Notes: a model not told the origin generated them from the sequence alone. DNA of 64,000 nucleotides from Chitinophagaceae bacterium (GCA_049242885.1 JBMLOQ010000130.1:5821-69820); one strand, 5' to 3'; numbered from the stretch's first letter, positions 46,927 to 64,000 are shown. Numbers and translations: made by a program.

Positions 46927-47011
46927 TTTTATTTTTTATTTATGATGTAAAATCAACCACTTACATCTTGTTTATTATTCCAAACTATTTTGGAACATTT
47001 TAACTTTTAAA

Positions 47012-47851
47012 TTATTTGCTTAATTTTTTTCCATTACTTCTTTGAATAATGAATTTATCTGTTCCTTTTCCTTTAGTTCTAGTTTTTTCACCTTTTGCAT
47101 ACTTACCAGTTCTGCTTCTTGGATGTCCACCAGATGATCTACCTTCACCACCACCCATTGGATGATCTACAGGGTTCATGGCAACACCTCTTACTCTTGG
47201 TCTTCTTCCTTTCCAACGGTTTACACCAGCTTTACCAGCAGTTTCCAAGTTATGATCTCCGTTGCTTGTAACACCAACTGTTGCATAACAATTGATTAAA
47301 ACTTTTCTTAACTCACCACTTGGCATTTTAAGTACAGCATATTTCTCTTCTTTATTAGCTAATTGTGCACTAGTACCAGCACTACGAGCCAATTTTCCTC
47401 CTTGTCCAGGTTGTAATTCAATGTTGTGAATCATAGTACCCAAAGGCATATTTTTCATTTGTAAAGAATTTCCTAATTCTGGAGCAACAGCATCTCCACT
47501 CATTACTTTAGCACCAACTTGTAACCCTTGTGGAGCTAAAATATATCTTTTTTCTCCATCAGCATATTCCAACAAGGCAATAAATGCAGTTCTATTTGGA
47601 TCATACTCGATAGTTAATACAGTAGCTTCTACATTATACTTATTTCTCTTGAAATCAATAATACGATATTGTTTTCTTGCACCACCACCTATGTATCTCA
47701 TGGCTCTTCTACCTTGAGAATTACGACCACCAGATCTTGAGATACGCTCAATTAAGCTTTTTTCTGGCTCATTAGTTGTTATTTCTGCATATGCATTACC
47801 AATTCTCCATCTAGTACCAGCGGTCATTGGTTTGTATTTCTTTAATGCCAT
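47012..47851 (-). CDS. rplB: 50S ribosomal protein L2
   Basis: uL2 (GRNSQGR...[17 protein letters not shown]). Confidence 0.98.
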
Positions 47852-47949
47852 TTTCTTTTTATTTAATTTGATGATTTAATTTACTTATCATCAGTTTTTG
47901 CAATTATTATCAGATTTGCTTTCTATAATCTCTTTTGATGTTAATTAAA

Positions 47950-48249
47950 TTATACACCAGAGTATAAATCAATAGTTTCACCATCAGCTACAGTAACTAA
48001 AGCTTTTTTGTAAGAGCTTTTTGTACCTTGTATATAACCAGCTTTTGTGAAACGGCTTTTATTTTTTGCAGGAGCTACTAATGTGTTTACACTAGTTACA
48101 GTTACTCCATAAAAACTTTCTATCGCTCTTTTAATCTCTAATTTATTAGCTTTTTTACCAACTCTAAAAGCATAAGTACGCAACTTAGTTTGTTGCAAAT
48201 TTGCTTTTTCGGTTAAAATTGGCTTTATTAAAATTTCTGACTGTCTCAT
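47950..48249 (-). CDS. rplW: 50S ribosomal protein L23
   Basis: uL23 (ILIKPILTEKA...KKALVT). Confidence 0.95.
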   Translation of the reverse strand: MRQSEILIKPILTEKANLQQTKLRTYAFRVGKKANKLEIKRAIESFYGVTVTSVNTLVAPAKNKSRFTKAGYIQGTKSSYKKALVTVADGETIDLYSGV

Positions 48250-48314
48250 TTTATTTTATTTAAACTTAGAAAGTATCAGTTTAATGCAACACTTTCTTGT
48301 TTTAGAATTTATTA

Positions 48315-48950
48315 TTACTCAGCTCCTTCTTCTTCTTCTGCGAATATTTTTGCAGCTCCTTCAGATAATACTAATACATCTGCGTTCATAATATCGTATG
48401 TATTAACATCTGCTAATAAAGTAGTTGCAATGTTTGGTATGTTACGAGTGCTTAAAAATACGTTGTCGTTATAATCAGCTAAAACAAACAATGATTTTTT
48501 TGAACCAATGTTTAAGTTGCCCATTGCTGTAGCAATTTCTTTAGTTTTTGGAGCAGCAAAATTCATATCTTCTACAACCAAAATTGCATTTTCTTTTGCT
48601 TTATAGCTAAGAGCAGAAATTTTTGCTAAATCTTTAACTTTTCTGTTCAACTTAATATCGTAAGCATGAGGTTTTGGTCCAAATATAGTACCACCACCTT
48701 TGTATAATGGGTTACGAATATTACCTTTACGTGATCCACCAGTTCCTTTTTGTTTGTGTAATTTGCGACTTGCACCTTGAACTTCGGCACGTGTTTTTAC
48801 TTTGTGTGTTCCTTGACGTTGTGCACCTAAGTATTGCTTAACTGCTAAATAAATAACATGATCGTTAGGCTCAACACCAAAAACTTCAGCAGGTAACTCA
48901 ACAGTACGTCCTGTTGCTTTTCCTTGTATATTTAAAACTTCTACTTGCAT
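48315..48950 (-). CDS. rplD: 50S ribosomal protein L4
   Basis: uL4 (RQGTHKVKTRAEV.G..RKLHKQKGTGGSR.G). Confidence 0.97.
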   Translation of the reverse strand: MQVEVLNIQGKATGRTVELPAEVFGVEPNDHVIYLAVKQYLGAQRQGTHKVKTRAEVQGASRKLHKQKGTGGSRKGNIRNPLYKGGGTIFGPKPHAYDIKLNRKVKDLAKISALSYKAKENAILVVEDMNFAAPKTKEIATAMGNLNIGSKKSLFVLADYNDNVFLSTRNIPNIATTLLADVNTYDIMNADVLVLSEGAAKIFAEEEEGAE

Positions 48951-49017
48951 TTTTTTAATTTGAAAATTGAAAATTATTTTCTTTTTTTCTTTTTGCTAAT
49001 TGTTGTATTAGCTAATT

Positions 49018-49638
49018 TTATTTTTGAACTAATACGATTGATCCATTATGACCAGGTACTGAACCAGTAACTAATATATAATTTTGTTCAGGGAAAATTT
49101 TAACAACTTTTAAGCCTTTCATTTTTACTCTGTCGCCACCCATTCTTCCTGCCATTCTCATGCCTTTGAATACACGTGATGCATCAGAAGAGTTACCAAT
49201 AGAACCTGGAGCTCTTTGACGATCATGCTGACCATGAGAAGCCTCACCAACTCCAGAGAATCCATGACGTTTTACAACACCTTGGAAACCTTTACCTTTG
49301 GTAGTACCAACCACTTCAATATCATCACCTTCAGCAAAAATGTCAACAGTAACAGTTTCGCCTAATGCTTTTTGTATAGAGTAGTTTCTAAATTCTTTTG
49401 TAAATCTTTTTGGAGCAGTGCTAGCTTTTGCAAAGTGGTTAATTTCTGCTTTTACGCTGTGCTTTTCTTTTTTATCAACAACGGCTAATTGTAAAGCGTT
49501 GTAACCGTCTGTTTCAACAGTTTTGATTTGAGTAACCGTATTTGGTTGAGCCTCAATAATGGTGCAAGCTGTTTGTTTGCCATCGGCACCAAAAATGCTT
49601 GTCATCCCAATTTTTTTTCCAATAATTCCTTTCATCAT
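49018..49638 (-). CDS. rplC: 50S ribosomal protein L3
   Basis: uL3 (GIIGKKIGMTSIF...GKGFQGVVKRHGF.G). Two consecutive ATGs at the start. Confidence 0.97.
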   Translation of the reverse strand: MMKGIIGKKIGMTSIFGADGKQTACTIIEAQPNTVTQIKTVETDGYNALQLAVVDKKEKHSVKAEINHFAKASTAPKRFTKEFRNYSIQKALGETVTVDIFAEGDDIEVVGTTKGKGFQGVVKRHGFSGVGEASHGQHDRQRAPGSIGNSSDASRVFKGMRMAGRMGGDRVKMKGLKVVKIFPEQNYILVTGSVPGHNGSIVLVQK

Positions 49639-49654
49639 TTGCGGTTTTAAATTT

Positions 49655-49828
49655 GCCCGCGAGGTTTAATAAAGGACATATAGAAGATGAATATCTATAG
49701 TCAATCCTTGTTTGCCAACGACCTTTTCTTTTGTTTTAAGTATTAAACTTAAGTAGAAGTACCGTTGGTAAACAAACCTCGAAGGGCTTGTTTATATTTA
49801 GCCTTCTCACCACTATTAAGTGGGGAAG
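49655..49828 (-). promoter_or_regulatory. GC-enriched multi-stem RNA structure in the 286-nt rpsJ-rplC spacer (candidate cis-regulatory leader or small RNA)
   Basis: Hand-folded on the transcribed strand. The outer stem GCCCUUCGAGG/CCUCGCGGGC encloses the hairpin GUUUACCAACG...CGUUGGCAAAC (10 bp, 1 mismatch) and a second hairpin AAGGAU..UAUAGA-loop-UCUAUA..GUCCUU. An upstream hairpin CUUCCCCAC-UUAAUA-GUGGUGAGAAG is also present. No ORF longer than about 10 codons. Confidence 0.4.
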
Positions 49829-49924
49829 ATAATTAGTTAAAATCAGAGCTCTTTTAATTCCTAATGAACTTGAGAGTTGATATATTTATTTTTTAGAACT
49901 TTTTTTGTTTTGTCAAAACTTTCA

Positions 49925-50230
49925 TCAAGCTTTGATTTCAACCTCAACACCACTTGGCAAATCTAATTTGCTTAATGCATCAACTGTACGTGAACTAGAA
50001 GTGTAGATATCTAATAATCTTTTATGAGTGCATAATTGAAATTGCTCTCTACTTTTTTTGTTTACGTGGGGAGAACGCAATACTGTGAAAATTCTTTTAC
50101 GAGTAGGTAAAGGAATAGGACCTGTAACTACGGCTCCTGTGCTACGAACAGTTTTTACAATTTTGTCAGCAGACTTGTCTACTAAATTGTGGTCGAAGCT
50201 TTGTAATTTTATTCTAATTCTTTGTGACAT
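49925..50230 (-). CDS. rpsJ: 30S ribosomal protein S10
   Basis: uS10 ([18 protein letters not shown]...). The ATG at 50230 gives the canonical 101 aa, and the track extension (MKKWSPN) is rejected. Confidence 0.97.
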
Positions 50231-50259
50231 ATTCGGTGACCATTTTTTCAAATGGAGTG

Positions 50260-50418: not shown

Positions 50419-51207
50419 TTACCAACCACTGCTTAAACCCTGCTCCAATGCTTTATTATACTTTTCCAAATTAAACTTATAATAGTTGGGCGACTTATGT
50501 GGTACTCCTTTTTTTGTTTCATCTAGCTTTTCCAAAATATCATACCCTATCATTTTTCGCTGAAAATTTCTTCTGTCCAATTTTACATCTAATAAGGTTT
50601 CATAAAGCTTTTGAAGCTCGGGCATGGTAAATTTTTCTGGTAACAAATTATACCCAATTGGCTGATAATGTAGTTGTAACCGCAAAGAAGCCAAAGCTTT
50701 ATCTAGTATTTTTTTATGATCAAGAATAAAATTTGGAAGATTACTCAAATCACACCACTCATAATTTTCTGTTGTAGCATCTGCAATTTGTTTCACTTCC
50801 AAAAAATCAATTAATGCATAATAGCCAACAGTTACAAACCTTTGAATAAGCCAATGGTTTTCGTGAATTACTAATCCATCATTTAACAAATCTTCTATAT
50901 GAAATTCTTTAGTATATCTTTTTGTATCTCCAAATGTAAAAAACTGCTGCAAAAAAACCTCTGTTAACCCAGTTCTATCCTTTAAAACCCTATAAGCAGC
51001 TGCATCGCAGGGCTCATCTTTACTTACAAACCCACCTGGCAAAGACCACATATCTCTATACCTATGTTTTATCAGTAGCACTTTCAACTCCCCTTCATGA
51101 AAACCAAAAATTACACAGTCTACCGATACAGAAGGCAAAAATGAATTTTCACCCACTTTAACCATGGCGTCTAAACTTTCATTCTTTGGAATTTTTTGTT
51201 CAATCAT
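50419..51207 (-). CDS. NrtR-like Nudix-domain transcriptional regulator (degenerate Nudix box plus C-terminal winged helix)
   Basis: The Nudix-box position reads GGFVSKDEPCDAAAYRVLKDRTGL, so the REUxEE glutamates are replaced by RVLKDR. The C-terminal FTMPELQKLYETLLDVKLDRRNFQRKM is wHTH-like. The track start is TTG, and the ATG at 51207 is preferred. Confidence 0.7.
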   Translation of the reverse strand: MIEQKIPKNESLDAMVKVGENSFLPSVSVDCVIFGFHEGELKVLLIKHRYRDMWSLPGGFVSKDEPCDAAAYRVLKDRTGLTEVFLQQFFTFGDTKRYTKEFHIEDLLNDGLVIHENHWLIQRFVTVGYYALIDFLEVKQIADATTENYEWCDLSNLPNFILDHKKILDKALASLRLQLHYQPIGYNLLPEKFTMPELQKLYETLLDVKLDRRNFQRKMIGYDILEKLDETKKGVPHKSPNYYKFNLEKYNKALEQGLSSGW

Positions 51208-51273
51208 TTGTATTAAAAAAGGCAAAAAAAAAATTTTTTCTTGGAATTGTAAAATTTATTTCTATATATTGCG

Positions 51274-51299
51274 TCACAATGACACAATGAGAATTGTGT
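51274..51299. promoter_or_regulatory. candidate operator: CACAATGA direct repeat plus inverted repeat ACACAAT-N4-ATTGTGT
   Basis: TCACAATGACACAATGAGAATTGTGT seen directly in the divergent region between the Nudix regulator and the first glucan-locus gene. Confidence 0.35.
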
Positions 51300-51460
51300 T
51301 ATCTAACGAAAAAACATTTGGCTTGCAATAATAGTATGTATTACATTAGTATTTAAAATTTACTAAACTCAATCATACATAGCATTCCATTTTGTTATAG
51401 TACTTAGTTAAATGTATTCTTCTAATATTAAAAAACAATTGTTTAATTTAAAATTGCTTT

Positions 51461-54400
51461 ATGAAAAAGTTAAGAAGTGCTTTGGCACTGCTGGTTCTTA
51501 CAACTGGGCTAATGGCTCAAGTTTCAGTAAAAAATGGTAATGATGGCATGAAACTCTCGGTCAATGGCAAAGATTTCTTTGTAAATGGAATGAACTGGGA
51601 TTATTTTCCTATTGGAACTAACTACAATTATAGTTTGTGGAACCAAAGTGACGATCTTGTAAAACGAGCTTTAGACAATGAAATGCCACTTCTTAAAAAT
51701 ATGGGGGTGAACACCATAAGACAATATACAGGCGTACCTGCTAAATGGATAAAGTATATTTATGAAAATTATGGCATTTACACCATGCTTAACCACTCTT
51801 TTGGTCGTTATGGTTTAAACGTAAAAGGCAAATGGGAACCTAATACAGATTATGCTAACCCTAATGTTAGAGAATTGCTTTTAAAAGAAACAAAAGATAT
51901 GGTAAACCAATACAAAAACACTCCAGGTTTACTATTATTTCTTTTAGGAAACGAAAATAACTATGGTTTATTTTGGCGTGGTGCTGAAACCGAAAATATT
52001 CCTGTACAAGACAGAAAATCTACTAAAGATGCTGAATTTATGTACAAGCTTTTTAACGAAGCTGCTAAAGAAATGAAAGTTTTAGATCCTAATCATCCTA
52101 TGGCAATATGCAATGGAGATTTATTGTTTCTTGAAATTATTGCTAAGGAATGTAAAGACATTGATATTCTTGGTATTAACGCATATAGAGGAATGACTTT
52201 TACTGACATGTATGACAGAGCAAAAAAAGAATTTCCTAAACCAATAATTCTTACAGAGTTTGGTAGCGATGCTTATAATACACAAGCTAATAAAGAAGAT
52301 CAAGAATACCAAGCTAAAGTTTTAGTAAGCAATTGGAAAGATATTTATGCAAATGCTGCTGGAATGGGTAAAAACAACAATAGCCTTGGTGGATTTACAT
52401 TTCAATTTAGTGATGGATGGTGGAAAACTGGACAAACTGTAAATTTAGACGACCATGATGCTACTGCATCTTGGGCAAATGGTGGTTACACTAATGATTT
52501 TGTAAAAGGCGAAAACAATATGAACGAAGAGTGGTTTGGAATTTGTGCTAAAGGAAAAACCAATGAAAACGGCATTTACGATTTATATCCTCGTGCTGCT
52601 TACTATGTTTTAAAACAAGTTCATCAATTCAATCCATTTTCAGTTGCCAAAGCCAATTTAAATTTTATTGATAATATTCAAATTACCGAAGCAATGCTTT
52701 TGGCTCGTGGCGATAAAGCAGCCTTACAAGCAGAAAGCAAAGGCAACTTATACCTTAGTGATTTACAAGCAAATTTTTACACATTCAACACTGGAGGAAG
52801 TTTAATTACTACACCAAAATCTACTGAAGCTGCTTTGGCAAATGGTTATCCAAACAGACAAGGTTTTGACCACATGCAATCATTTAACCTTGGAATTACT
52901 GCAAAACCTGCTCCAAACGTATCAGCAAATGTTCAATTTAACTTATTGGGCAATGTAGCAGAAAATGCTATTGATGAAGTGTTTTACGAAAATAGAGGAA
53001 GACGTTTTGCAGTGAGTACACCAACAGGGCCTGTATTAATGAATTCAAATAATAGAGTTCAATTGTATAGAGCAAGTTATAGCTGGGATGCAAAAGATTT
53101 TAAACTAACTGGTTTTTACAGAACTGGACATTATCATTGGGCTTATGAAGGAGATATGTTTAACCTTTACCAAGAAGCAAATTATGGCCCAAACATAGAT
53201 ATATACAATGGTGAAGCTCCATTTGGATTTGAGTTAGAAGGTAAAAAGAAATTGAAAGGATTGAAGGTTGCTTTTGGCCCAGAACTTTGGTGGGGAGCCA
53301 ACCCTGCTATATTAGCTAAATACAATTTTAAATTAGCTAAGTTTGATGCTACAGCAATTTTTCATGAAGATTTAGTGCAACGTAGTGGTTTACAAAGTTC
53401 GTTTGCTGTGCCTGTACCAAAAACACGAAAAGCTACTTTTGCTTTAGCAAGAAAATTTGAAAAATTTGGTATTGAAATTGGTGGTATTTGGGGAGGACAG
53501 CCTTTAAATGGTAGGGTTTTTCAACTCGAAAGAGATGGAAAATACTATCAAGATGTAATAAAAAGTACCGACAATTTTGGAGGAAAAGTTAAACTTACTT
53601 ATTCAAGTGGTGCTATTCAATGGTATGGATTATCCTCTTACATGGGCTTAGTAGCAAATGGAGGATTCGATCAAACTCAAACCTTTACTGGATGGCGTTT
53701 AAAAGATGTTGGAAGTGGAAATATGTTTAATGTATTAAGTGGTTTTACATATAGTATTGGAAAATTACAAATTGCTCCAAACTTCATGTATCAAAAACCT
53801 CTAGAAGGGCCACTTTCTGCAAGTGCACAAGCACCAGCAAGACCAAGAAATATTTTAGATGATCCTTTTTCTGTTCGTTCAAATAGAGAAACAGTTGGTG
53901 GAGAATTATTATTAACTTACGATCCTACACCAGCAACTTGGATGTATCAATGGGATAATGACAGAGCAGAAGATGCAAAATTTGCAATAAGTGCTGGCTT
54001 TGTTTTCAGACATTTACCAACAGTTCAAGATGCTGCAATTGGTATCCTAGCCAATAGAAATTTATTTGCTTTCCCTGGCTCTGCTCCTGCTCAAGATTTG
54101 TGGGAAGTAAATACAAGAATTGTATCAAAATTAAACCCCAACTTTGGAATAATTGCCAATTTATATGCTGGTAATGGACAAGCAAATGGTAGCGATGCTA
54201 GAACAATTAATCGCTTTGGTGCAGATGTTAGAACCATTTACAAAAAAATGAAATTCATGGCAATTGCCAAGTTCAACGATTGGGGACCATTTGACTATCA
54301 TAGAGATTTTAACTTAACCTTTCCTTTGCAATTAACTGCTGATATTTCTACAGAAGTTGGCAAGCCAGATTGGTTTGTTTTACCAAGTACAAAAATTGGT

Positions 54401-54565
54401 TTAAGAGCAACATATAGAACGCTTGATAAATATTCTCCACGTTACGCTCCAATTAAAGTTTTAGACCCAGCAGGCAATTGGGTTCCAGATCCAAATGCAA
54501 TAGGTTTTCCAAATGGTAATGAGTGGGAATTTAGAACATACATTCAATTCAATCTAGGCAGATAA
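51461..54565 (+). CDS. secreted fusion protein: clan GH-A (GH2/GH5-like) TIM-barrel glycosidase-like domain plus a roughly 600-aa predicted outer-membrane beta-barrel
   Basis: Signal peptide. GVNTIRQY, LLFLLGNENNY (acid/base-like NE) and PIILTEFGSDAY (nucleophile-like E) lie in the first 400 aa or so. From about residue 430 there are 20 or more amphipathic alternating strands (VSANVQFNLLGNV, FKLTGFYRTG, LKVAFGPELWWG, FGIEIGGIWGG, KVKLTYSSG, FAISAGFVFRH, FGIIANLYAGNG, KIGLRATYRT, EWEFRTYIQFNLGR) with aromatic girdle residues. Confidence 0.6.
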   Translation: MKKLRSALALLVLTTGLMAQVSVKNGNDGMKLSVNGKDFFVNGMNWDYFPIGTNYNYSLWNQSDDLVKRALDNEMPLLKNMGVNTIRQYTGVPAKWIKYIYENYGIYTMLNHSFGRYGLNVKGKWEPNTDYANPNVRELLLKETKDMVNQYKNTPGLLLFLLGNENNYGLFWRGAETENIPVQDRKSTKDAEFMYKLFNEAAKEMKVLDPNHPMAICNGDLLFLEIIAKECKDIDILGINAYRGMTFTDMYDRAKKEFPKPIILTEFGSDAYNTQANKEDQEYQAKVLVSNWKDIYANAAGMGKNNNSLGGFTFQFSDGWWKTGQTVNLDDHDATASWANGGYTNDFVKGENNMNEEWFGICAKGKTNENGIYDLYPRAAYYVLKQVHQFNPFSVAKANLNFIDNIQITEAMLLARGDKAALQAESKGNLYLSDLQANFYTFNTGGSLITTPKSTEAALANGYPNRQGFDHMQSFNLGITAKPAPNVSANVQFNLLGNVAENAIDEVFYENRGRRFAVSTPTGPVLMNSNNRVQLYRASYSWDAKDFKLTGFYRTGHYHWAYEGDMFNLYQEANYGPNIDIYNGEAPFGFELEGKKKLKGLKVAFGPELWWGANPAILAKYNFKLAKFDATAIFHEDLVQRSGLQSSFAVPVPKTRKATFALARKFEKFGIEIGGIWGGQPLNGRVFQLERDGKYYQDVIKSTDNFGGKVKLTYSSGAIQWYGLSSYMGLVANGGFDQTQTFTGWRLKDVGSGNMFNVLSGFTYSIGKLQIAPNFMYQKPLEGPLSASAQAPARPRNILDDPFSVRSNRETVGGELLLTYDPTPATWMYQWDNDRAEDAKFAISAGFVFRHLPTVQDAAIGILANRNLFAFPGSAPAQDLWEVNTRIVSKLNPNFGIIANLYAGNGQANGSDARTINRFGADVRTIYKKMKFMAIAKFNDWGPFDYHRDFNLTFPLQLTADISTEVGKPDWFVLPSTKIGLRATYRTLDKYSPRYAPIKVLDPAGNWVPDPNAIGFPNGNEWEFRTYIQFNLGR

Positions 54566-54585
54566 AACAAATTAAAAAAAATTAT

Positions 54586-55989
54586 ATGAAAAATAATAAA
54601 ACAATTCAAACCATATTATTCAATCTTTTAGGATTAATAATTTTAACTGGTGTTGCTTGCAAAAAAAGAGATGTTACAGGCTTAGAAGCACCAAAGTTTC
54701 CAAAAACAGCAGATGTGTTTATCGACGATTTTACTGGCGATTTAGGTTATGGTGCCTTTGGCGGTTCGGATGTAAGAGCTTTTAGCATAGAAACAAGAGA
54801 AACTTATAATAATTCTCGTCAATCCATGCGATTTGATGTACCAGATGCAAATAGCCCACTTGGCTCATACGCAGGTGGAGTTTTTATAAGCAATTCTGGA
54901 AGAGATTTAAGTGGTTTTAATGCTTTAACTTTCTACATCAAAGCTAATCAAGCAATTACAGTGGGAGAAATTGGTTTTGGCAACGATTTTGGAGCAAACA
55001 GATATGTAGTATCCATAAAAGATTTACCAGTAGCAACAGGTTGGAAAAAAATTATCATTCCAATTCCAGATCCTTCAAAATTAACAGCAGAAAAAGGATT
55101 AATGTATTATGCAGCTGCACCAATAGGCAATAGAGGCTATACATTTTGGATTGACGAAGTAAAGTTTGAAAAACTAGGAACTATAGGTTTAGGCCAAGCA
55201 TCAATTAATAATGGAAATAATACTTCTATTACAACATTTGCAGGTGTAAATACTACAATCACTGGTGTAATTGCTACATTTAATTTACCAACAGGTGTAA
55301 ATCAAGTAGTTAACTTAAGCACAGCTTATTTTGATTTTAAATCTTCAAATACAGCAGTAGCCTCTGTAAATGCAAATGGAGTAGCAACAGCCTTAAGTGC
55401 TGGAACATCTACAATTACAGCAACAATAAGTGGTAAGCCTGCTACAGGAAGTTTAACCATTAATTGTGCAGGTAGATATATAAATGCACCTACACCAACA
55501 AGACCACAATCTAATGTAATTTCAATTTTCTCAGATGCTTATACCAATGTACCAGTTAATTATTACAATGGTTATTGGGCTCCATGGCAAACTACTATTT
55601 CCAATGATTTTACTGTAAATGGAGATAATGTTTTAAATTATAACGTGTTCAACTTTGTTGGAATGGAATTTACTGCACCAACTGTGAATGCAACCAATAT
55701 GACCCATTTTCACCTTGATGCCTTTTTCCCAGGTACAATTGCTCCAGGAAGACAATTAAGGATTATTCTTGTTGATTTTGGTGCAGATCGTTCTTTTGGT
55801 GGTGGAGATGATACAAGACATTCAACCACATTTACTGCACCAACCTTAGTATCACAAAGTTGGGTGCAACTAGACATTCCTTTTTCTGCAATGCCAGGTT
55901 TAGTAAGCAGAAACAATATAGCTCAAATAATTTTAGAAGGTGGCGACAACTCAACGCTTTATGTTGACAATGTTTATTTCTGGCGTTAA
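54586..55989 (+). CDS. surface lipoprotein with CBM-like beta-sandwich, Big_2 Ig-like and C-terminal CBM-like domains (candidate glycan-binding protein)
   Basis: Lipobox LTGVAC. The Big_2-like segment is NTAVASVNANGVATALSAGTSTITATISG. The flanking domains have beta-sandwich sequence character, and the C-terminal one ends ILEGGDNSTLYVDNVYFWR, like the CBM-like domain of the GH16 at 35551-37437. Confidence 0.55.
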   Translation: MKNNKTIQTILFNLLGLIILTGVACKKRDVTGLEAPKFPKTADVFIDDFTGDLGYGAFGGSDVRAFSIETRETYNNSRQSMRFDVPDANSPLGSYAGGVFISNSGRDLSGFNALTFYIKANQAITVGEIGFGNDFGANRYVVSIKDLPVATGWKKIIIPIPDPSKLTAEKGLMYYAAAPIGNRGYTFWIDEVKFEKLGTIGLGQASINNGNNTSITTFAGVNTTITGVIATFNLPTGVNQVVNLSTAYFDFKSSNTAVASVNANGVATALSAGTSTITATISGKPATGSLTINCAGRYINAPTPTRPQSNVISIFSDAYTNVPVNYYNGYWAPWQTTISNDFTVNGDNVLNYNVFNFVGMEFTAPTVNATNMTHFHLDAFFPGTIAPGRQLRIILVDFGADRSFGGGDDTRHSTTFTAPTLVSQSWVQLDIPFSAMPGLVSRNNIAQIILEGGDNSTLYVDNVYFWR

Positions 55990-56039
55990 TAAAATAGATT
56001 TAAACAAATAAATAGCTTAAATAAATTAAAAAATTAAAA

Positions 56040-56876
56040 ATGAACTTTCAAATAATTAAAACAAAAAAAATAAACAAGGCAAACACATTTGCCTACCTAG
56101 CTTTAATAGTTTTGCTAAGTAGTTGCCAAAAAGATGGTATTCAAAATTTACCAAAAAGGTCTTGGGAGCTTACTTGGAGTGATGATTTTAATGGCACTGC
56201 AGGCTCGGCACCAGATAATTCTAAATGGAATTTTGACCTTGGTACTGGTACAAATGGTTGGGGAAACAGTGAGTTACAAACTTACACCAACCAGCCTTCT
56301 AATATTCAGCAAGACGGTAATGGAAGACTATTAATTACTGCTAGAAGTGGCGGTTTTACTAGTGCAAGAATTAATACAAAAGGGAAATTTGCACAAGCTT
56401 ATGGTAGATTTGAAGCTAGAATAAAAACTACTCATGGCCCTGGTATTTGGCCAGCATTTTGGATGATGGGAGCTAACATAGATTCTAAACCTTGGCCTCA
56501 ATGTGGTGAAATTGATATTTTGGAACAAAAGGGTCAAGAGCCTCATATCACTTATAGCACTATACATGGCCCTGGATATGCAGGTGGTAGTTCTATTGCA
56601 AAAATGTTTTCATTAGAGAATGATAGATTCGATAACGATTTTCATATCTATGCTGTAGAATGGGGAACAGATTTTATTGATTTTTATGTAGATGATTTTT
56701 TGTTCCATCGCATTACTCCTGAAACACTTAAAGGAAAAGAGTGGGTATTTAATCAACCATTTTTCATCCTTTTAAATGTTGCTATTGGTGGTAACTATGT
56801 TGGCTTTCCTACAGCTGGCACACCATTTCCACAAAGTATGATGGTTGATTATGTAAAAGTATATAAGCAACGTTAA
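56040..56876 (+). CDS. GH16 endo-beta-1,3-glucanase (laminarinase), lipoprotein
   Basis: Lipobox LLSSC. WSDDFNG, WPAFWMMG and the catalytic motif GEIDILEQ (ExDxxE). Confidence 0.9.
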   Translation: MNFQIIKTKKINKANTFAYLALIVLLSSCQKDGIQNLPKRSWELTWSDDFNGTAGSAPDNSKWNFDLGTGTNGWGNSELQTYTNQPSNIQQDGNGRLLITARSGGFTSARINTKGKFAQAYGRFEARIKTTHGPGIWPAFWMMGANIDSKPWPQCGEIDILEQKGQEPHITYSTIHGPGYAGGSSIAKMFSLENDRFDNDFHIYAVEWGTDFIDFYVDDFLFHRITPETLKGKEWVFNQPFFILLNVAIGGNYVGFPTAGTPFPQSMMVDYVKVYKQR

Positions 56877-56978
56877 TTTATAACAAAAATCAATTCTTAA
56901 AATTCTTCATAAAGCTTTAAAAGATAACTAAATAACTTTTAAAGCTTTGTTTCTTAATAGTCTGTAAAAAAAACCTCA

Positions 56979-59900
56979 ATGAATTCTGCAAGTACTGTAA
57001 ATAAGCCTTTAGAATCGGTAGTAATTAATGATGAAATATTTTATAAAATAGAAAATGTAGATGCTTTGCGTCCATTTTTTATGAGCATTGTAAGCGATAG
57101 TAATCATTGGCTTTTTGTAGCTAGTAATGGTGGTTTAAGTGCTGGAAGAAAAAATGCACAGTTTGCACTATTTCCTTACTATACAGATGATAAAATTACA
57201 GAAAGTGCCGAAAATACAGGTAGCAAAACAATTGTTAAAGTACATCAAAACAATTCTACTGTTTTGTGGCAACCTTTTTCGGTTAAAGACGAAGGAAAAT
57301 TCAATAAAACCAATAATTTGTATCAAAGCAAATGGGGTAATAAAATTATTTTCGAAGAAATAAATCATGATTTACAAATAAGTTTTTCATACGAATGGAG
57401 TAACAGTAACGAATTTGGATTTGTAAAAAAATCTACCCTTACAAATTTATCTAATAACAAAGTTGAAGTTAGCTTTATAGATGGCTTACAAAACATTATG
57501 CCATATGGTGTTCCATCGGATGTACAAAATAGCACCAGTAATTTAGTTGATGCCTATAAAAGAAGTGAACTTTTGCCAGAATGTGGAATTGGTATTTATG
57601 CACTAAGTGCCATAATTGTAGATAAAGCAGAACCAGCCGAAGCCCTAAAAGCTAATATTGTTTGGAGTTTTGGCTTAGATAATGTAACCTACTTATTATC
57701 TTCATTTCAATTAAAAAACTTTATAAAAAATGTAGCAATAACCCAAGAAGAAGATGTAAAAGGTGAAAAGGGTGCTTACTTTATTACTAGTAATATTTCT
57801 TTAGAAGCAAATGCTAACAAAAGCTGGTATTTTGTTGCTAATGTAAACCAAACACAAAGCAATGTTATTGCATTAAATGAGTTTTTAAAAACCGAGAAAA
57901 AATTAGCTGAAAAAATTAAAAGCAGCATTGATTTAGGAACCCAAAATTTGCAACAGCTAACTGCCGCTGCTGATAGTTTGCAATTTACAGCAGATACTTT
58001 AAAAGATACAAGGCACTATAATAATGTTTTGTTCAACATAATGCGAGGTGGCATTTTCGACAACAACTATCAAATTGAAAAATGGGACTTTGAATTGTAC
58101 ATTCAAAAAGCAAACAAACAACTTTTTGAAAGTTTAAGTGCAACCCTTAATTCTTTACCAAATGAATGTAGCATTTTTCAGTTAAAAGCAATTGCTGAGC
58201 AAAGCAACAACAATGATTTTATAAGGTTAGCCACAGAATACTTACCACTAAAATTTAGTAGAAGACATGGAGACCCAAGTCGCCCTTGGAATCAATTTTC
58301 AATCAACACTCGTAGCGAAGTTGATGGCTCTAAAATTTTAGATTATCAAGGTAACTGGAGAGATATTTTTCAAAACTGGGAAGCTTTAGCACATGCATAT
58401 CCAGCGTTTATAGAAGGCATGATTACAAAGTTTTTAAATGCCTCTACATTTGATGGATATAATCCTTATCGTGTAACTAAAGATGGTTTTGATTGGGAAA
58501 CAATAGAACCAGATAATCCTTGGAGTTATATTGGCTATTGGGGTGATCATCAAATAATTTATTTACTTAAATTTTTAGAATTTGCAGAGCAACATCAAGC
58601 AGGATTTTTAAGTTCTAAATTATTGAACAATCATTTTGTGTACGCCAACGTGCCTTACAAAATTAAATCGTATGATGCCATTGTAGCTAATCCAAAAGAT
58701 ACCATTGAATACGACCATGCTAACGAAAAAAATATTCATTATAGAATTGCTACATTAGGTGCTGATGGAGCATTGTTAGCTACAAAAAATGGTGAAATTT
58801 ATAAAGTAAATTTCATAGAAAAAATATTAGCAACCACTCTTGCAAAACTTTCAAACTTTGTACCAGAAGCTGGGATTTGGATGAATACACAACGCCCAGA
58901 ATGGAATGACGCCAATAATGCTTTAGTAGGCAATGGTGTATCAATGGTAACGTTATATTATTTAAGAAGATTTTTAAACTTTTTAATTGAATCATTAGAC
59001 AATAACTCCATTCATAATATTGAAATTTCAAATGAAATTCATAGTTTTTATACTGCTATTGCAGAAACTTTGAAACATCATGAGACATTACTTTCGACTT
59101 CAATTTCCAACAAAAAAAGAAAAGAAATAGTTGATGCTTTAGGCAATGCTGCAAGTAGCTTCAGAAATAATGTTTATGACAATTCTTTCAGTGGCTCAAA
59201 ATCTATAATTTCAACTTGTGAGCTGATTAACTTCTTTAAAACTGCTTTGCAATTTATTGATCATTCTATTAAAGCAAATAAACGAAACGACAATCTTTAT
59301 CACGCCTACAATTTACTCAATTTTGAAAATGATGGTTTAAGTATTTCTTACTTAAGCGAAATGTTAGAAGGGCAAGTTGCTGTATTAAGTGCTGGTATTT
59401 TAACAGCTGAGGAAAGTATAAAAGTTTTAGATGCTTTAAAAGCTAGTTCATTGTATCGAGCTGATCAGAATAGCTATATACTTTACCCAAACAAACAACT
59501 ACCTAGATTTTTAGTAAAAAATAACATCACATCATCAGCAATACAAACTTCTAGTTTGCTTCAACAACTTTTACAAGATGGCAACACTTCAATTATTGAA
59601 AAAGACATACTTGGTGGATTTCATTTTAATGGCAATTTTAAAAATGCCGATGATGTTGCAACGGCATTAAACAATTTAAACGAAGTTTATAGCAACCTTG
59701 TATCTCAAGATAAAGACCTGGTTTTAGATATTTTTGAAACGGTATTTAACCATAAAGAATTTACAGGTCGTTCTGGAACTTTCTTTGCTTTTGAAGGGTT
59801 AGGATCCATTTATTGGCACATGGTAAGCAAGTTGGCTGTTGCTGTGCAAGAAACTTGTTTAAGAGCAATAAGTTCAGGTGCTTCAAATGATTTAATTAAT

Positions 59901-60413
59901 AAACTAGTAGCACATTATTATGCTGTTAGCGATGGCATTGGTGTTCATAAATCACCAAGTGTTTATGGTGCTTTCCCAATTACGCCATACTCTCATACAC
60001 CATTGCATAAAGGAGCTCAACAACCAGGAATGACAGGGCAAGTAAAAGAAGATATTCTTACACGCCTGGGTGAATTGGGAGCTAACATAAAACAAGGAAA
60101 GCTACATTTTGAACCAACCATTTTGCTAAAGAAAGAATTGTTGCAGGATTCCCTTAACGCAAATTTTGCTTTGGTAGATGGAAGTTCAAAAACCATTTTG
60201 ATACCAAAAGATGCTTTAGCTTTTACCATTTGTCAAGTTCCAATAATATATAAAATTTCAACTTTAGTAAAAATTGAAATTGAATTCGCAATTGGCGTAA
60301 TTGAAACTTTAAACGGCAATTGCTTATCAGAAATTTTAACTCAAAAAGTAGTTAATAGAACAGGTGAAATTAATCGAATCACAGTTTATTTAAATGAAGG
60401 TTGCTTTAAATAA
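56979..60413 (+). CDS. large cytoplasmic GH94-clan-like glycoside phosphorylase, GH149-like (candidate beta-1,3-glucan phosphorylase)
   Basis: No signal peptide, 1144 aa. GNWRDIFQNWEAL resembles the RDxxQ motif. RPEWNDANNALVG resembles the catalytic DWND-type motif. FEGLGSIYWHM resembles the GSxxW phosphate-site motif of GH94-type phosphorylases. Size and neighbours (GH16/GH17/GH30/GPH) fit what is reported for bacterial GH149. Confidence 0.55.
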   Translation: MNSASTVNKPLESVVINDEIFYKIENVDALRPFFMSIVSDSNHWLFVASNGGLSAGRKNAQFALFPYYTDDKITESAENTGSKTIVKVHQNNSTVLWQPFSVKDEGKFNKTNNLYQSKWGNKIIFEEINHDLQISFSYEWSNSNEFGFVKKSTLTNLSNNKVEVSFIDGLQNIMPYGVPSDVQNSTSNLVDAYKRSELLPECGIGIYALSAIIVDKAEPAEALKANIVWSFGLDNVTYLLSSFQLKNFIKNVAITQEEDVKGEKGAYFITSNISLEANANKSWYFVANVNQTQSNVIALNEFLKTEKKLAEKIKSSIDLGTQNLQQLTAAADSLQFTADTLKDTRHYNNVLFNIMRGGIFDNNYQIEKWDFELYIQKANKQLFESLSATLNSLPNECSIFQLKAIAEQSNNNDFIRLATEYLPLKFSRRHGDPSRPWNQFSINTRSEVDGSKILDYQGNWRDIFQNWEALAHAYPAFIEGMITKFLNASTFDGYNPYRVTKDGFDWETIEPDNPWSYIGYWGDHQIIYLLKFLEFAEQHQAGFLSSKLLNNHFVYANVPYKIKSYDAIVANPKDTIEYDHANEKNIHYRIATLGADGALLATKNGEIYKVNFIEKILATTLAKLSNFVPEAGIWMNTQRPEWNDANNALVGNGVSMVTLYYLRRFLNFLIESLDNNSIHNIEISNEIHSFYTAIAETLKHHETLLSTSISNKKRKEIVDALGNAASSFRNNVYDNSFSGSKSIISTCELINFFKTALQFIDHSIKANKRNDNLYHAYNLLNFENDGLSISYLSEMLEGQVAVLSAGILTAEESIKVLDALKASSLYRADQNSYILYPNKQLPRFLVKNNITSSAIQTSSLLQQLLQDGNTSIIEKDILGGFHFNGNFKNADDVATALNNLNEVYSNLVSQDKDLVLDIFETVFNHKEFTGRSGTFFAFEGLGSIYWHMVSKLAVAVQETCLRAISSGASNDLINKLVAHYYAVSDGIGVHKSPSVYGAFPITPYSHTPLHKGAQQPGMTGQVKEDILTRLGELGANIKQGKLHFEPTILLKKELLQDSLNANFALVDGSSKTILIPKDALAFTICQVPIIYKISTLVKIEIEFAIGVIETLNGNCLSEILTQKVVNRTGEINRITVYLNEGCFK

Positions 60414-61663
60414 TGCTCAAAAAAATCTCTATCATATTCACAGCAACTGTTGCTTTTTTAAACACTGGTTTTGCTCAACAAAAAAATGCAAACCCAACAG
60501 CAGCTACTATTTTAGGTAATCCAAAATATAAAGCTATTTGCTATGGAGGTTATAGACAGTGTAATAGAGATAGTGCCCCTACAATTGCTCAAATAAAAGA
60601 AGATCTTAAAATTTTAACTGCTTTAAACTATAAAATATTAAGAACCTATAATGTACATAAACAAGAAATTTCTAATATACTTGAAGCTATAACACAACTA
60701 AAAAAAGAGCGAAAGCAATTTGAAATGTATGTTATGCTTGGTGCTTGGATTGATTGTAAAAATGCTTGGACCAACTTACCTCCTATTCATAACGAAGAAA
60801 GTGAACGTAATGCTGTTGAAGTAGCTGAAGCTGTGAGATTAGCCAATAAATATCCTTCAATAGTTAAAATAATTTCTGTAGGCAATGAAGCAATGGTAAA
60901 CTGGGCTACGAGCTATTATGTAACCACAAATATCATTTTAAAATGGGTTAATCATCTTCAAAATCTTAAGAAAACCAACCAACTAAATAAAGATATTTGG
61001 ATTACAAGTTCTGACAATTTTGCTTCTTGGGGTGGTGGAGATTCTAGTTATCATTCAAACGACTTAAAAGCATTAATAAATGCAGTAGATTATGTGTCTA
61101 TACACACCTACCCTATGCACGATACCCATTATAATCCAACGTTTTGGGGTACTAAAGCCAACGAAAAAAACCTATCCCAAAAAGAACAAGTTAAAGCTAT
61201 AATGCTTAGAGCAAGGGACTATGCTATTAATCAATATAACAGTGTTGTACACTATATAAAAGCTAATGGTATTAAAAAAGCTGTGCACATTGGTGAAACT
61301 GGTTGGGCTACTCAATGCAATGAGCTTTATGGCAATAATGGATCAAAAGCAATTGACGAATATAAAGCTGCTATTTATCATCAACTAATTAGCGATTGGG
61401 CAACTAAACAAAAAATAAGTTGCTTTTACTTCGAAGCATTTGATGAATGTTGGAAAAACGGAAGTAATCCTATGCACTCTGAAAATCATTTTGGTTTCAT
61501 TAACCTTAATGGTCAAGCAAAATATGCACTTTGGAAATTAGTTGACAAAGGCGTTTTTAAATCACTTACTAGAGATGGCAAAAATATTACTAAAACTTAT
61601 GATGGAAATGAAGCTTTGCTAATGAAAGAAGTGCAATTACCCACATCAATTTTAAAAAATTAA
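60413..61663 (+). CDS. GH17 family beta-1,3-glucanase / glucanosyltransferase, secreted
   Basis: Signal peptide. ISVGNEAMVNW (acid/base) and HIGETGWATQ (nucleophile), as in GH17. The start overlaps the upstream stop (TAATG). Confidence 0.8.
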   Translation: MLKKISIIFTATVAFLNTGFAQQKNANPTAATILGNPKYKAICYGGYRQCNRDSAPTIAQIKEDLKILTALNYKILRTYNVHKQEISNILEAITQLKKERKQFEMYVMLGAWIDCKNAWTNLPPIHNEESERNAVEVAEAVRLANKYPSIVKIISVGNEAMVNWATSYYVTTNIILKWVNHLQNLKKTNQLNKDIWITSSDNFASWGGGDSSYHSNDLKALINAVDYVSIHTYPMHDTHYNPTFWGTKANEKNLSQKEQVKAIMLRARDYAINQYNSVVHYIKANGIKKAVHIGETGWATQCNELYGNNGSKAIDEYKAAIYHQLISDWATKQKISCFYFEAFDECWKNGSNPMHSENHFGFINLNGQAKYALWKLVDKGVFKSLTRDGKNITKTYDGNEALLMKEVQLPTSILKN

Positions 61664-61674
61664 AAAGTATCAAC

Positions 61675-63174
61675 ATGAAAAAACTTATAAAAAGTGCAAA
61701 ACTGTTGATGATTACATTAAGTATGATTGCTGTTTTAAATGAAAATAGTTCAGCCCAAAAATTAATAGTAGAAATTTATGAAACTGCTGCGAATGGAAAT
61801 TCTTTAAAAAAAATTGCTCCTATTTCAAAGGCTATTAATCCTATAAAAATTTCTATTAATCCAGAAGAAAAATTTCAAAAAATTACTGGTTTTGGGGGTT
61901 CTTTTACACAATCAACAGCCTATTTACTAAACAAGCTTAGTGCTGCCAATCGAAAAAAAATTATTGATGGTTATTTCAGCGAAGCTGGAGCAAACTACTC
62001 CCTCACCAGAACACATATAAACTCTTGTGATTTTAGTACGCATCAATATGCTTATAACACTACTCCCAATGATACAGCTTTAAATCAGTTTGATATTAGT
62101 GAAGATGAAAAGGGTATTATACCTATGATTAAGGCTGCAAAAAAAACCAGCAAAGATGGCTTTAAAATAATTGCTTCGCCTTGGACTGCACCACCTTGGA
62201 TGAAAGACAACAACCTTTGGGTGGGCGGAAAATTGCTACCAAAATATTACGATACTTGGGCATTATATTTTAGCAAATACTTTAAGGCATATAAAAAACA
62301 CAACATCAATTTTTGGGGCATTACTGTAGAAAACGAACCTCATGGAAATGGCAATAATTGGGAAAGTATGTTGTATAGTCCAAAAGAAATGACAGATTTT
62401 GTAGAGTTTCATCTTGGACCTAAGCTAGAAAAAGATGGATATGGTAAAATAAAAATTTTAGGTTACGATCAAAACCGTGCTGGCATACAAGAATGGGTAG
62501 ATGAAATGTATCGTTCTCCCAACTCAACCAAATATTATGCAGGTTTAGCAGTTCATTGGTACGAAAGCACCTATGATTATTTTGGTGATGCTTTACAATA
62601 TGCACACAAAAAAAATCCATCGAAACATTTAATAAATACTGAGGCTTGCATTGATAGTGATGTGCCAGCTTGGAAAAATGATAGTTGGTATTGGAGCAAA
62701 GAAGCAACAGATTGGGGCTGGGATTGGGCAAGTGAAAAAGAAAAACATTTGCACCCCAAATATGCCCCAGTATTTAGATATGCTACAGATATTATTGGCT
62801 GTTTAAATAATTATGTAGATGGTTGGGTAGATTGGAATATGGTTTTAAACAAACAAGGTGGCCCAAATTGGTTTAAAAACTGGTGTGCTGCTCCTGTGTT
62901 GGTAGATGAAGATAAAGACGAAGTGTATTTTACCCCTTTGTATTACACTATGGCTCACTTTAGTAAATTTATAAGACCAGGAGCTACTAGAATTGGCTTT
63001 ACAAATCCTGATAAAGACTTGATGGTTACTGCTGCAAAAAATGTTGATGGAAGTATTGCAGTAGTTGTATTTAATCAAACAGAAGAAACAAAAAACATTT
63101 CACTAACGATTAATAAAAAACTTGTTGACTTAAAAATTTCAGCAAAAGCTATTCAAACCATTTTTATAAAATAA
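61675..63174 (+). CDS. GH30 family glycosidase (beta-1,6-glucanase / glucosylceramidase-like), secreted
   Basis: GFGGSFTQS, SPWTAPPWMK, ITVENEP (acid/base) and INTEAC (nucleophile). Signal peptide present. Confidence 0.85.
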   Translation: MKKLIKSAKLLMITLSMIAVLNENSSAQKLIVEIYETAANGNSLKKIAPISKAINPIKISINPEEKFQKITGFGGSFTQSTAYLLNKLSAANRKKIIDGYFSEAGANYSLTRTHINSCDFSTHQYAYNTTPNDTALNQFDISEDEKGIIPMIKAAKKTSKDGFKIIASPWTAPPWMKDNNLWVGGKLLPKYYDTWALYFSKYFKAYKKHNINFWGITVENEPHGNGNNWESMLYSPKEMTDFVEFHLGPKLEKDGYGKIKILGYDQNRAGIQEWVDEMYRSPNSTKYYAGLAVHWYESTYDYFGDALQYAHKKNPSKHLINTEACIDSDVPAWKNDSWYWSKEATDWGWDWASEKEKHLHPKYAPVFRYATDIIGCLNNYVDGWVDWNMVLNKQGGPNWFKNWCAAPVLVDEDKDEVYFTPLYYTMAHFSKFIRPGATRIGFTNPDKDLMVTAAKNVDGSIAVVVFNQTEETKNISLTINKKLVDLKISAKAIQTIFIK

Positions 63175-63205
63175 TTAAATCTAACGAAAAAACAACTAAC
63201 GCCTT

Positions 63206-64000
63206 ATGTCAAATTCAGTACAAACAAATAAAGTACCTATGGTTAAAAAGGTAGCTTTTGGTGTAGGTATGCTTGCAAACCAAATGTTTCCTGCTGCCCT
63301 TGGAGTATTTATGGTTGTATTAGTAAACGGTTTTGGATTTCCTGTTTGGATGGTTGCTATTTTAACCTTTGCTCCAAGACTTTTAGATTTTGTAATTGAT
63401 CCAATCATGGGTTTTATTACTGATAATACACGCTCTCGTTGGGGCAAAAGAAGACATTATGTTTTTATTGGTGCTATAATATTAGGCATTAGTTTTTTAT
63501 TCATGTGGCAAATACATAAAGACAATGGAATAACATTTAATTTTTTCTATTTTCTGTTTTTTAAACTTTGCTTATACATTGGGCTTACTATTTTTAGTAT
63601 TCCTTTTGTAGCCATGGGTTATGAAATGAGCGAAGATTTTCACGAGCGTACACAAATTATGGCTATTGCACAATGGATTGGTCAATGGGCTTGGGTAATT
63701 GTTCCTTGGTTTTGGATAATTATTTACGACCCAACTTGGTTTCCTTCTCCTGAAGCAGGGGCAAGGTCATTATCAGTTTGGGTAGCAATAATTTGCATGC
63801 TTTTTGCTATGGTTCCTGCCTTTTTTATAAAGTCGGCATCTACCTTAAACGAAACAAGTTTTAAATCCATAAGCTTAAGAAATATTGGAGGTATTTTTAA
63901 AAATTTAATTCACGAATTTAAAGAGGCATTTAAATTACAAGACTTTAGAAGATTGTGCTATGCAACCTTTTTTACCTTCAATGCTTTTAACACAGTTGCA
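63206..64000 (+). CDS. GPH-family (glycoside-pentoside-hexuronide:cation symporter) MFS transporter, 5' partial (continues past the window end)
   Basis: Hand translation from the ATG at 63206 stays open to the window end. The GPH signature is IDPIMGFITDNTRSRWGKRRHY, and multiple TM helices are present. The antisense ORF at 63196-63447 is rejected. Confidence 0.85.
   Translation, partial: MSNSVQTNKVPMVKKVAFGVGMLANQMFPAALGVFMVVLVNGFGFPVWMVAILTFAPRLLDFVIDPIMGFITDNTRSRWGKRRHYVFIGAIILGISFLFMWQIHKDNGITFNFFYFLFFKLCLYIGLTIFSIPFVAMGYEMSEDFHERTQIMAIAQWIGQWAWVIVPWFWIIIYDPTWFPSPEAGARSLSVWVAIICMLFAMVPAFFIKSASTLNETSFKSISLRNIGGIFKNLIHEFKEAFKLQDFRRLCYATFFTFNAFNTVA

Follow-up and report, generated by a model that had tools for sequence, protein, structure and literature searches.

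A stretch of 64,000 nucleotides from a Chitinophagaceae bacterium (GCA_049242885.1 JBMLOQ010000130.1:5821-69820), analysed in full and referred to here as the window (64 kb; GC 31%), carries at positions 50419-64000 a locus whose function in the catabolism of β-1,3-glucan (laminarin/chrysolaminarin) with a phosphorolytic end is close to certain. Laminarin is among the largest fluxes of the aquatic carbon cycle, and SusC/SusD pairs are the customary guide to glycan use by Bacteroidota, in the definition of the polysaccharide utilization locus (PUL) as well as in metaproteomic measures of activity. The window locus has no such pair. Its likely operon begins with a gene for a 1034-amino acid protein in which a domain resembling the glucanases of family GH158 is followed by a predicted outer membrane β-barrel. 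The reading preferred here, with a rough probability of 0.55, is that of a SusC/SusD-independent operon in which the barrel serves as a channel for β-1,3-oligosaccharides. Gene identities, fold, conservation, synteny and the absence of SusC/SusD are computed; the role of the barrel as a channel, the side of the membrane that the enzyme domain faces, the substrates and the regulation are inferred.

The enzyme-barrel protein and its relatives

The 1034-amino acid protein, with a signal peptide at residues 1-19, is poorly described by existing domain models. Pfam returns a weak match to GH2_C/clan GH-A over residues 68-287 and none for the barrel (residues 430-1034), and no NCBIfam model matches the protein. 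A first AlphaFold2 (AF2) run on a shallow alignment of 39 sequences (76-94% identity) reached a pLDDT of 52.7 and was discarded. A second run, on an alignment of 76 sequences that included Myxococcota homologues and extended down to 36% identity, gave a model with a pLDDT of 85.9 and a pTM of 0.77. In this model a (β/α)8 domain (residues ~21-400) is joined by a linker helix (408-423) to ~22-26 antiparallel strands (430-1033). Turns of 2-3 residues lie on the side of the barrel that holds both termini and loops of 18-36 residues on the opposite side, and this division into short turns and long loops is the signature of an outer membrane barrel. Among PDB structures, Foldseek placed the GH158 enzymes 9p26 and 6pal at the top (E 1e-14), and its matches for the barrel were BtuB3 (8p98), PfeA (5out) and MOMP (5ldv), of which those to BtuB3 and PfeA reflect the shared barrel fold only. 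Model and Foldseek agree with the preliminary description of this locus, made from the sequence alone, which had called the protein a GH-A/barrel fusion. The barrel contains no cysteine and is rich in glycine, asparagine and aromatic residues; hydrophobic alternation in its strands is 2.4 as compared with 1.9 in a control, a modest difference that is weak evidence alone. On the model, the C-terminal part of the protein is predicted to be an outer membrane β-barrel.

The N-terminal domain shares with GH158 enzymes (BuGH158, 6pal; GH158(Pro), 9oro/9p25) the (β/α)8 fold and a retaining pair of glutamates at equivalent motifs. These are E165 (GNENNYG) and E266 (TEFG), at the positions of the clan GH-A acid/base and nucleophile, and both are invariant in the 76-sequence alignment. 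Sequence searches of the PDB reached 9oro with the single sequence (1.6e-5), and 6pal (2.6e-9) and 9oro (1.3e-7) with a family profile, covering only ~150-200 residues at the core of the (β/α)8 barrel, while identity in the structural alignments with GH158 is only 12-13%. In solved GH158 enzymes a C-terminal Ig-like domain packs on the catalytic barrel and caps the active site, and one of its loops forms the processive tunnel of GH158(Pro) (PMC13195107). This domain is not evident in the model, where residues 330-370 are of low confidence, largely unstructured and poor in strands. Because the capping domain is not evident, the N-terminal domain is termed here a GH158-like endo-β-1,3-glucanase, as predicted from the model, and not a proven member of the family. 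The GH158 enzymes known so far are either soluble or held by a lipid anchor, whereas the window domain is fused to a membrane barrel.

Proteins of this architecture are widespread. Among 8000 candidates scored in a protein search, more than 5634 are homologues of the 1034-amino acid protein; almost all of the 120 listed are ~1035 amino acids long (three are 992-1029), and they carry names such as "hypothetical" or "GH2 TIM barrel". When representatives clustered at 50% identity were searched exhaustively, 2118 clusters matched at E <= 0.001, the most distant full-length members being ~29% identical. Carriers number at least 584 species genomes, counting one genome per GTDB species, and include Chitinophagaceae, Flavobacterium, Chryseobacterium, Cloacibacterium, Saprospiraceae, Bacteroidales, Cytophagales, Algoriphagus and Balneola. 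The closest protein, from a Chitinophagaceae metagenome-assembled genome, is 94% identical, and the window most likely stems from a freshwater, low-GC member of the Chitinophagaceae. Within the protein family, the most conserved stretches of the 76-sequence alignment are long loop segments rich in aromatic and acidic residues.

The barrel also occurs without the enzyme. The search of representatives returned proteins of ~590 amino acids that match residues 470-1000 only, and a search seeded with this short form returned many clusters of 575-598 amino acids from marine Gammaproteobacteria together with fused forms of ~1020 amino acids. Over residues 425-1034 of the window protein the stand-alone barrels (588-596 amino acids) show 30% identity (E 1e-48), the conserved aromatic/acidic loops included. 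They carry signal peptides of their own, and their C-termini, ...YFTYSF or ...YFTYAF, are a canonical outer membrane insertion signal. Two gammaproteobacterial loci illustrate their setting (related loci are numbered here with the prefix L). In L165 a solute-binding protein (SBP_bac_5), two permeases, two ATPases and a LacI regulator accompany the barrel, a GH16 and a large GH16, while L166 holds part of the same ABC set, LacI, GH1, GH16, a large GH16-CBM4_9 protein and the barrel, beside a type I secretion system. Fused forms outside the Bacteroidota lie in comparable clusters: in Archangium gephyra an overlapping operon of ROK, GH16, an Opp-type ABC importer, GH1 and the fusion protein, and in a Tara Oceans gammaproteobacterium GH3, a regulator, GH30, the fusion protein, GH149 (45% identical) and a CUT1 ABC importer. 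None of the gammaproteobacterial or Archangium clusters examined encodes a TonB receptor. Across three phyla the barrel is the only outer membrane component encoded, and the inner membrane importer varies. A barrel without an enzyme has nothing to anchor; a role in anchoring alone is thereby less likely, and one in the passage of β-1,3-oligosaccharides across the outer membrane more likely. As judged from these sequences, the barrel would be an autonomous family of outer membrane proteins with a function of its own.

Gene order is conserved to a striking degree among the related loci. Synteny was assessed by tblastn of the window proteins against the 80 best loci, with counts made only on loci with enough flanking sequence. 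The order barrel protein, CBM lipoprotein, GH16, GH149, GH17, GH30, GPH is kept across several orders, often with extra CBM lipoproteins after the first one. A CBM lipoprotein gene directly follows the barrel gene in 66 of 67 loci, a GH16 gene lies within 5.5 kb of it in 61 of 62, and a GH149 gene within 10 kb downstream in 44 of 56. The barrel protein is conserved as much as the enzymes or more (in L005, 75% identity as against 50-66% for its neighbours). The fused and split forms together amount to a natural "Rosetta stone" that ties enzyme and barrel functionally.

Outer membrane passage: evidence and alternatives

The preliminary description had reported SusC and SusD to be missing, and this was upheld for all 64 kb. 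No open reading frame (ORF) of the window combines the size of SusC with its domains, and Pfam detects no SusD. In the two genes that take the place of SusC/SusD, those for the barrel and the CBM lipoprotein, Pfam finds neither Plug nor TonB_dep_Rec nor SusD at E <= 0.01. The 1034-amino acid protein likewise has no Plug, CarboxypepD_reg or TonB_dep_Rec domain, so it is not a SusC or other TonB-dependent transporter. Other window ORFs of at least 900 amino acids encode a TraB-family protein and SMC only. A TonB-dependent receptor of 753 amino acids (31448-33709, minus strand; CarbopepD_reg_2 and Plug) is too short for SusC, and no SusD-like gene adjoins it. The window locus lacks the adjacent susC-like and susD-like genes that define a PUL in the strict sense.

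The same holds for most related loci, 77 of 80 being without a SusC-like gene within ±10 kb. Directly upstream of the barrel gene, 40 of the 80 loci carry a Reg_prop/Y_Y_Y regulator (BguR-type, ~950 amino acids). A regulator of this type heads the laminarin PULs of marine bacteria, where SusC follows it (bioRxiv 10.64898/2026.01.10.698779), and the barrel gene in these 40 loci thus takes the position of SusC. Candidates for an overlooked SusC were rejected on their Pfam domains: the recurrent ~950-amino acid ORFs upstream of the barrel gene are the Reg_prop/Y_Y_Y regulators themselves, and ORFs of ~1096-1119 amino acids downstream of the transporter in metagenome loci encode FG-GAP/ASPIC and CHU_C proteins. 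Remaining large ORFs in the flanks encode GH3, PKD/CBM4_9 proteins and unrelated housekeeping proteins. The FG-GAP/ASPIC (CRTAC1-like) proteins of ~1096 amino acids recur a few kb 3' of the transporter gene in marine laminarin loci, directly after it in L110 (6330-9620) and L116 (11651-14947) and after GH17 and GH3 in L149 (15909-19199).

Which side of the membrane the enzyme domain faces is suggested by relatives that lack the barrel. Stand-alone enzyme orthologues of ~400-440 amino acids, 59-63% identical to residues 1-427, adjoin GH149 in metagenome loci centred on the transporter (L096, L114, L116, L119, L132). They have type I (SPI) signal peptides without a lipobox or a tag of the type IX secretion system (T9SS), and would most simply be periplasmic. 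They stop just past the stretch that corresponds to the linker helix of the fusion, and because they keep this helix it is best regarded as part of the enzyme module. In L108 (7418-9889, plus strand) an 823-amino acid ORF with a type I signal peptide joins a GH158-like domain (63% identical) to GH17 (66% identical). In the model only six residues separate the linker helix from strand 1, which begins on the short-turn side. Together, the signals of the stand-alone orthologues, the GH17 fusion and the six-residue connection on the short-turn side favour the periplasmic side of the barrel for the enzyme domain by roughly two to one.

Combining these observations, the following route can be proposed. 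At the cell surface the CBM lipoprotein would bind glucan and the GH16 lipoprotein would cut it to oligosaccharides, probably aided by a T9SS-secreted GH16. The oligosaccharides would cross the outer membrane through the C-terminal barrel, acting as a TonB-independent, substrate-specific channel. The GH158-like domain, tethered by its six-residue connection and most likely periplasmic, would cleave chains as they emerge. In the periplasm GH17 would trim the chains and GH30 remove β-1,6 branches, the GPH symporter would bring short laminari-oligosaccharides across the inner membrane, and GH149 would convert them in the cytoplasm to glucose-1-phosphate and glucose. The NrtR/AraR-type regulator would control the operon, probably at a 21-bp palindrome. 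A closely similar route had been implied in the preliminary description: the roles of the genes stand, and the order of steps changes, with the enzyme domain now probably facing the periplasm. Its proposal of passage through the fused barrel gains support from the stand-alone barrels in laminarin clusters and beside ABC importers, with transport itself kept conditional here. Since GH158 enzymes can be processive (PMC13195107), a bolder version may be entertained in which the barrel founds a family of TonB-independent glycan translocons (Bacteroidota, Myxococcota, Gammaproteobacteria) and the periplasmic glucanase ratchets long chains through without TonB energy; this version is doubtful.

Several observations weigh against the barrel as a channel, or against a periplasmic enzyme. 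The barrel's Foldseek matches are generic, and a sequence profile search of the PDB found no similarity between it and any solved channel. The window protein ends in ...YIQFNLGR, not in the terminal aromatic residue of a β-signal; the last residues of members further off in the family are ...YFTYSF, ...YFTYAF or ...YATYKF. The literature yielded no experiment on any member of the barrel family. A SusC-like gene does lie within ±10 kb in three of the 80 related loci (L052, L080, L069), and, the absence of SusC/SusD being established over the 64-kb window, a pair elsewhere in the genome acting in trans would be compatible with the data. Finally, BuGH158 is a surface enzyme in Bacteroides (PMC7157763), which fits surface display, and the autotransporter-like domain order of the fusion protein likewise leaves some probability for a surface location.

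The last two points also support reading the barrel as an autotransporter-like anchor for a surface-exposed GH158-like glucanase, with oligosaccharides entering through unrelated porins or transporters. The order enzyme, helix, barrel is that of type Va autotransporters, and with a type I signal peptide in place of a lipobox the barrel could replace a lipid anchor. This explanation is nonetheless unlikely, since at ~600 amino acids and 22-26 strands the barrel is far above the 12 strands of autotransporters and has no Pfam autotransporter match, and the linker helix, being kept in stand-alone enzymes with plain type I signal peptides, belongs to the enzyme and is not a pore-threading element. 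Moreover, enzyme-less barrels occur in laminarin clusters and share the best-conserved aromatic/acidic loops. Transport in trans, by a SusC/SusD pair or another TonB-dependent transporter whose genes lie elsewhere, would reduce the barrel fusion to an accessory enzyme. Many SusC/SusD pairs are usual in Bacteroidota genomes, the three loci with a nearby SusC-like gene and the 753-amino acid receptor of the window are in keeping with it, and marine laminarin PULs pair SusC/SusD with a stand-alone GH158 (bioRxiv 10.64898/2026.01.10.698779). It is rather improbable in view of the scarcity of SusC near the related loci, the fixed place of the barrel gene at the head of the operon, the strong conservation of the barrel protein, and the presence of the same barrel in Myxococcota and Gammaproteobacteria, which have no SusC/SusD system, in clusters without a TonB receptor.

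A role in export or remodelling is very improbable. In several polysaccharide exporters a periplasmic domain precedes a barrel at the C-terminus, and by this analogy barrel and glucanase might handle a β-glucan exopolysaccharide of the cell's own, as do BcsC/BcsZ and PgaA/PgaB. However, no glycosyltransferase or synthase gene was found in any locus examined, and the neighbours are all catabolic (GH16, GH17, GH30, GH1, GH3, GH149, importers).

Comparison with known systems

The set GH16, GH17, GH30, GH149, GH158 and MFS transporter, induced by laminarin, is well established (PMC6246565, PMC10108472), in keeping with the earlier view of GH16, GH17 and GH30 as the canonical laminarin toolkit. In the canonical laminarin PULs of Formosa spp., Formosa agariphila and Christiangramia forsetii ("variant 1"), GH16_3, GH17, GH30_1, GH149, GH158 and an MFS transporter, often fused to GH17, recur as in the window locus, as do CBM-bearing surface proteins; a BguR-type regulator is shared with most relatives of the window locus. 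The window lineage differs in its NrtR/AraR-type regulator. The greater difference lies at the outer membrane, where canonical PULs encode a SusC/SusD pair and a separate GH158 of ~430 amino acids, whereas the window locus has the fused barrel of ~600 amino acids and no SusC/SusD.

Loci of this kind have been met before. Kuhaudomlarp et al. (2018; PMC5827456) located Bacteroidetes GH149 genes in PULs as well as in "CAZyme clusters lacking susCD-like gene pairs", and the absence of SusC/SusD with a GH149 end-step is thus not new. A "laminarin PUL" of Muricauda (2026) comprises LuxR, "GH2", GH16, GH149, GH17A, GH30_1, MFS and GH17B, with SusC/SusD unmentioned (PMC13188888). Both are described with the genes of the window locus in its order and probably represent the same locus type. 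In these reports the first gene passes as an ordinary "GH2" or without comment, and neither its barrel nor the crossing of the outer membrane is discussed. The literature searched on GH158, GH149 and laminarin porins does not describe an enzyme-barrel fusion or an outer membrane route for such loci. What appears to be new is the GH158-like/β-barrel protein and, with the related enzyme-less barrels, a large uncharacterised outer membrane family.

LamB/ScrY maltoporins, the chitoporin ChiP and CymA are passive outer membrane channels that belong to catabolic operons and work with an inner membrane importer. The proposed window channel would resemble them by analogy in mode of action; it differs in having no detectable sequence similarity to them, ~22-26 strands as against 14-18, and a fused enzyme. 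Two further candidates for comparison were set aside. GluM of Corallococcus, an outer membrane barrel with reported glucanase activity, is a homologue of Oar/TonB receptors (PMC6971385), whereas the window protein lacks Plug and CarboxypepD_reg and has a separate TIM-barrel catalytic domain; the "porin" of the Formosa study is part of an unrelated nitrogen cluster.

A locus type carried by so many species of several orders, with related forms in two other phyla, would escape PUL prediction based on SusC/SusD. If the barrel is a channel, it represents a new family of outer membrane transporters and a rare fusion of enzyme and channel, and offers a simple, genetically tractable system for the TonB-free crossing of oligosaccharides. 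Were the ratchet also to prove true, it would solve the same problem as SusCD by a second and mechanistically different route, and counts of SusC/SusD would underestimate glycan uptake by environmental Bacteroidota.

Other genes, borders and regulation of the locus

All eight genes of the preliminary description were recovered, in the order it gave (Table 1). ORF listing and translation show seven plus-strand genes in 51461-64000 and a divergent regulator gene, and because only 0-102 bp separate the seven, they likely form one operon. Signal peptides and lipoboxes were taken directly from the translated window proteins.

Table 1. Genes of the locus and an unlinked GH16 gene, with positions in the window
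Feature	Position	Strand	Evidence
GH16 with T9SS sorting domain, 628 amino acids	35551-37437	-	GH16 1.3e-22, Por_Secre_tail 3.6e-11
NrtR/AraR-family regulator, 268 amino acids	50419-51225	-	Pfam NrtR_WHD 5.6e-23, NUDIX 4.6e-9, AraR_C 1.1e-6
Outer membrane fusion protein, 1034 amino acids	51461-54565	+	Type I (SPI) signal peptide; AF2, Foldseek
CBM/Big_2 lipoprotein, 467 amino acids	54586-55989	+	Lipobox TGVAC; CBM_11 4.7e-5 (below cut-off), Big_2 5.5e-5
GH16 lipoprotein	56040-56876	+	Lipobox LLSSC; Pfam GH16 2.7e-25
GH149 phosphorylase	56979-60413	+	NF058639, 6hq6; signal peptide absent
GH17	60413-61663	+	Type I signal peptide; PDB 6fcg 534 bits, E 1.5e-159
GH30	61675-63174	+	Type I signal peptide; Pfam Glyco_hydro_30 7.5e-76, GH30C 6.8e-14
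GPH/MFS_2 cation symporter, first 264 residues	63206-64000	+	MFS_2 1.2e-27, TIGR00792 1e-23; cut by window end

The enzymes downstream of the fusion protein have clear relatives. For the GH16 lipoprotein the closest solved structures are β-1,3-glucanases/laminarinases (3atg, 260 bits; 2hyk; 3azx), and it is predicted to be an endo-β-1,3-glucanase of laminarinase type. GH149 scores 1720.7 bits against the NCBIfam equivalog NF058639 (cut-off 1150) and 1522 bits over residues 11-1140 against PDB 6hq6, the characterised phosphorylase Pro_7066. Inspection of its N-terminus revealed no hydrophobic segment or signal peptide. It is accordingly assigned, by homology, as a cytoplasmic β-1,3-(oligo)glucan phosphorylase, and equivalog score and translation thereby confirm the phosphorylase without a signal peptide and the phosphorolytic end-step of the preliminary description. 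The start of GH17 overlaps the stop of GH149; GH17 is predicted to be a periplasmic endo-β-1,3-glucanase, and GH30, whose closest solved structures are GH30_1 glucosylceramidases (278 bits), a GH30_1-like debranching β-1,6-glucosidase.

The 467-amino acid CBM lipoprotein is a candidate surface glucan-binding protein. Against PDB sequences it has a Big_2-type match only. Its C-terminal module (residues 310-465) shares 29-30% identity with modules that recur within a 1417-amino acid gammaproteobacterial GH16 (L165:13848-18101, minus strand), which suggests that the two proteins share a β-1,3-glucan-binding module unmodelled by Pfam.

The left border of the locus is placed at the regulator gene, because the block lies in other genomic surroundings in the nearest relatives. 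At the right, the locus runs past the window edge, as had been noted, and its description as "complete" was premature, given that the last gene is cut off. The nearest relatives (94% identity on the barrel protein; L081-L084, Logan SRR298448xx) close the operon with a 777-amino acid MFS_2-GH17 fusion (L081, genes 21721-23108). The MFS part of this fusion is 53% identical to the window symporter as compared with 74-94% for the other genes, and it appears that close relatives have exchanged their transporter genes. The best matches of the window symporter (61-66% identity) include both plain and GH17-fused forms, and a metagenome scan with the GPH fragment found nothing above 66% identity; an exact search with the window GH30, aimed at extending the contig, matched no record. 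The symporter may be a plain protein of ~470 amino acids or an MFS-GH17 fusion of ~780; such a fusion has also been described for Formosa (PMC6246565).

The T9SS GH16 lies 13 kb from the operon, beyond a SecY block that resembles a ribosomal-protein operon. Its homologues (48-54% identity) directly follow the transporter in seven related loci (L085, L086, L097, L098, L109, L123, L151), and it is probably the secreted first-attack laminarinase of the same system, unlinked in the window.

The regulator has the NrtR architecture of a Nudix domain and a winged-helix DNA-binding domain. It scores 124 bits against the NCBIfam NtrR model, below the cut-off of 400, and so does not reach the ADP-ribose-responsive equivalog; the AraR_C match points to a sugar-responsive subgroup of NrtR regulators. 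Among related loci, a regulator of NrtR type is confined to the nearest relatives (L001, L010, L012, L081-84), and their lineage appears to have exchanged the usual BguR-type regulator for one of NrtR/AraR type. In the divergent promoter region a perfect 9-3-9 palindrome of 21 bp (51268-51288), ATTGCGTCA-CAA-TGACACAAT (full ATTGCGTCACAATGACACAAT), is followed by a third half-site, ATTGTGTTA, at 51293-51301. The palindrome occurs once in the window, where chance would give 0, and is the best-conserved intergenic block in every NrtR-bearing locus. It is proposed as a candidate operator of the NrtR-type regulator. Directly upstream of the regulator gene, at 37850-50251 (minus strand), SecY (Pfam) and a run of small ORFs resemble a ribosomal-protein operon, and a strong negative GC skew at 40-48 kb coincides with this block.

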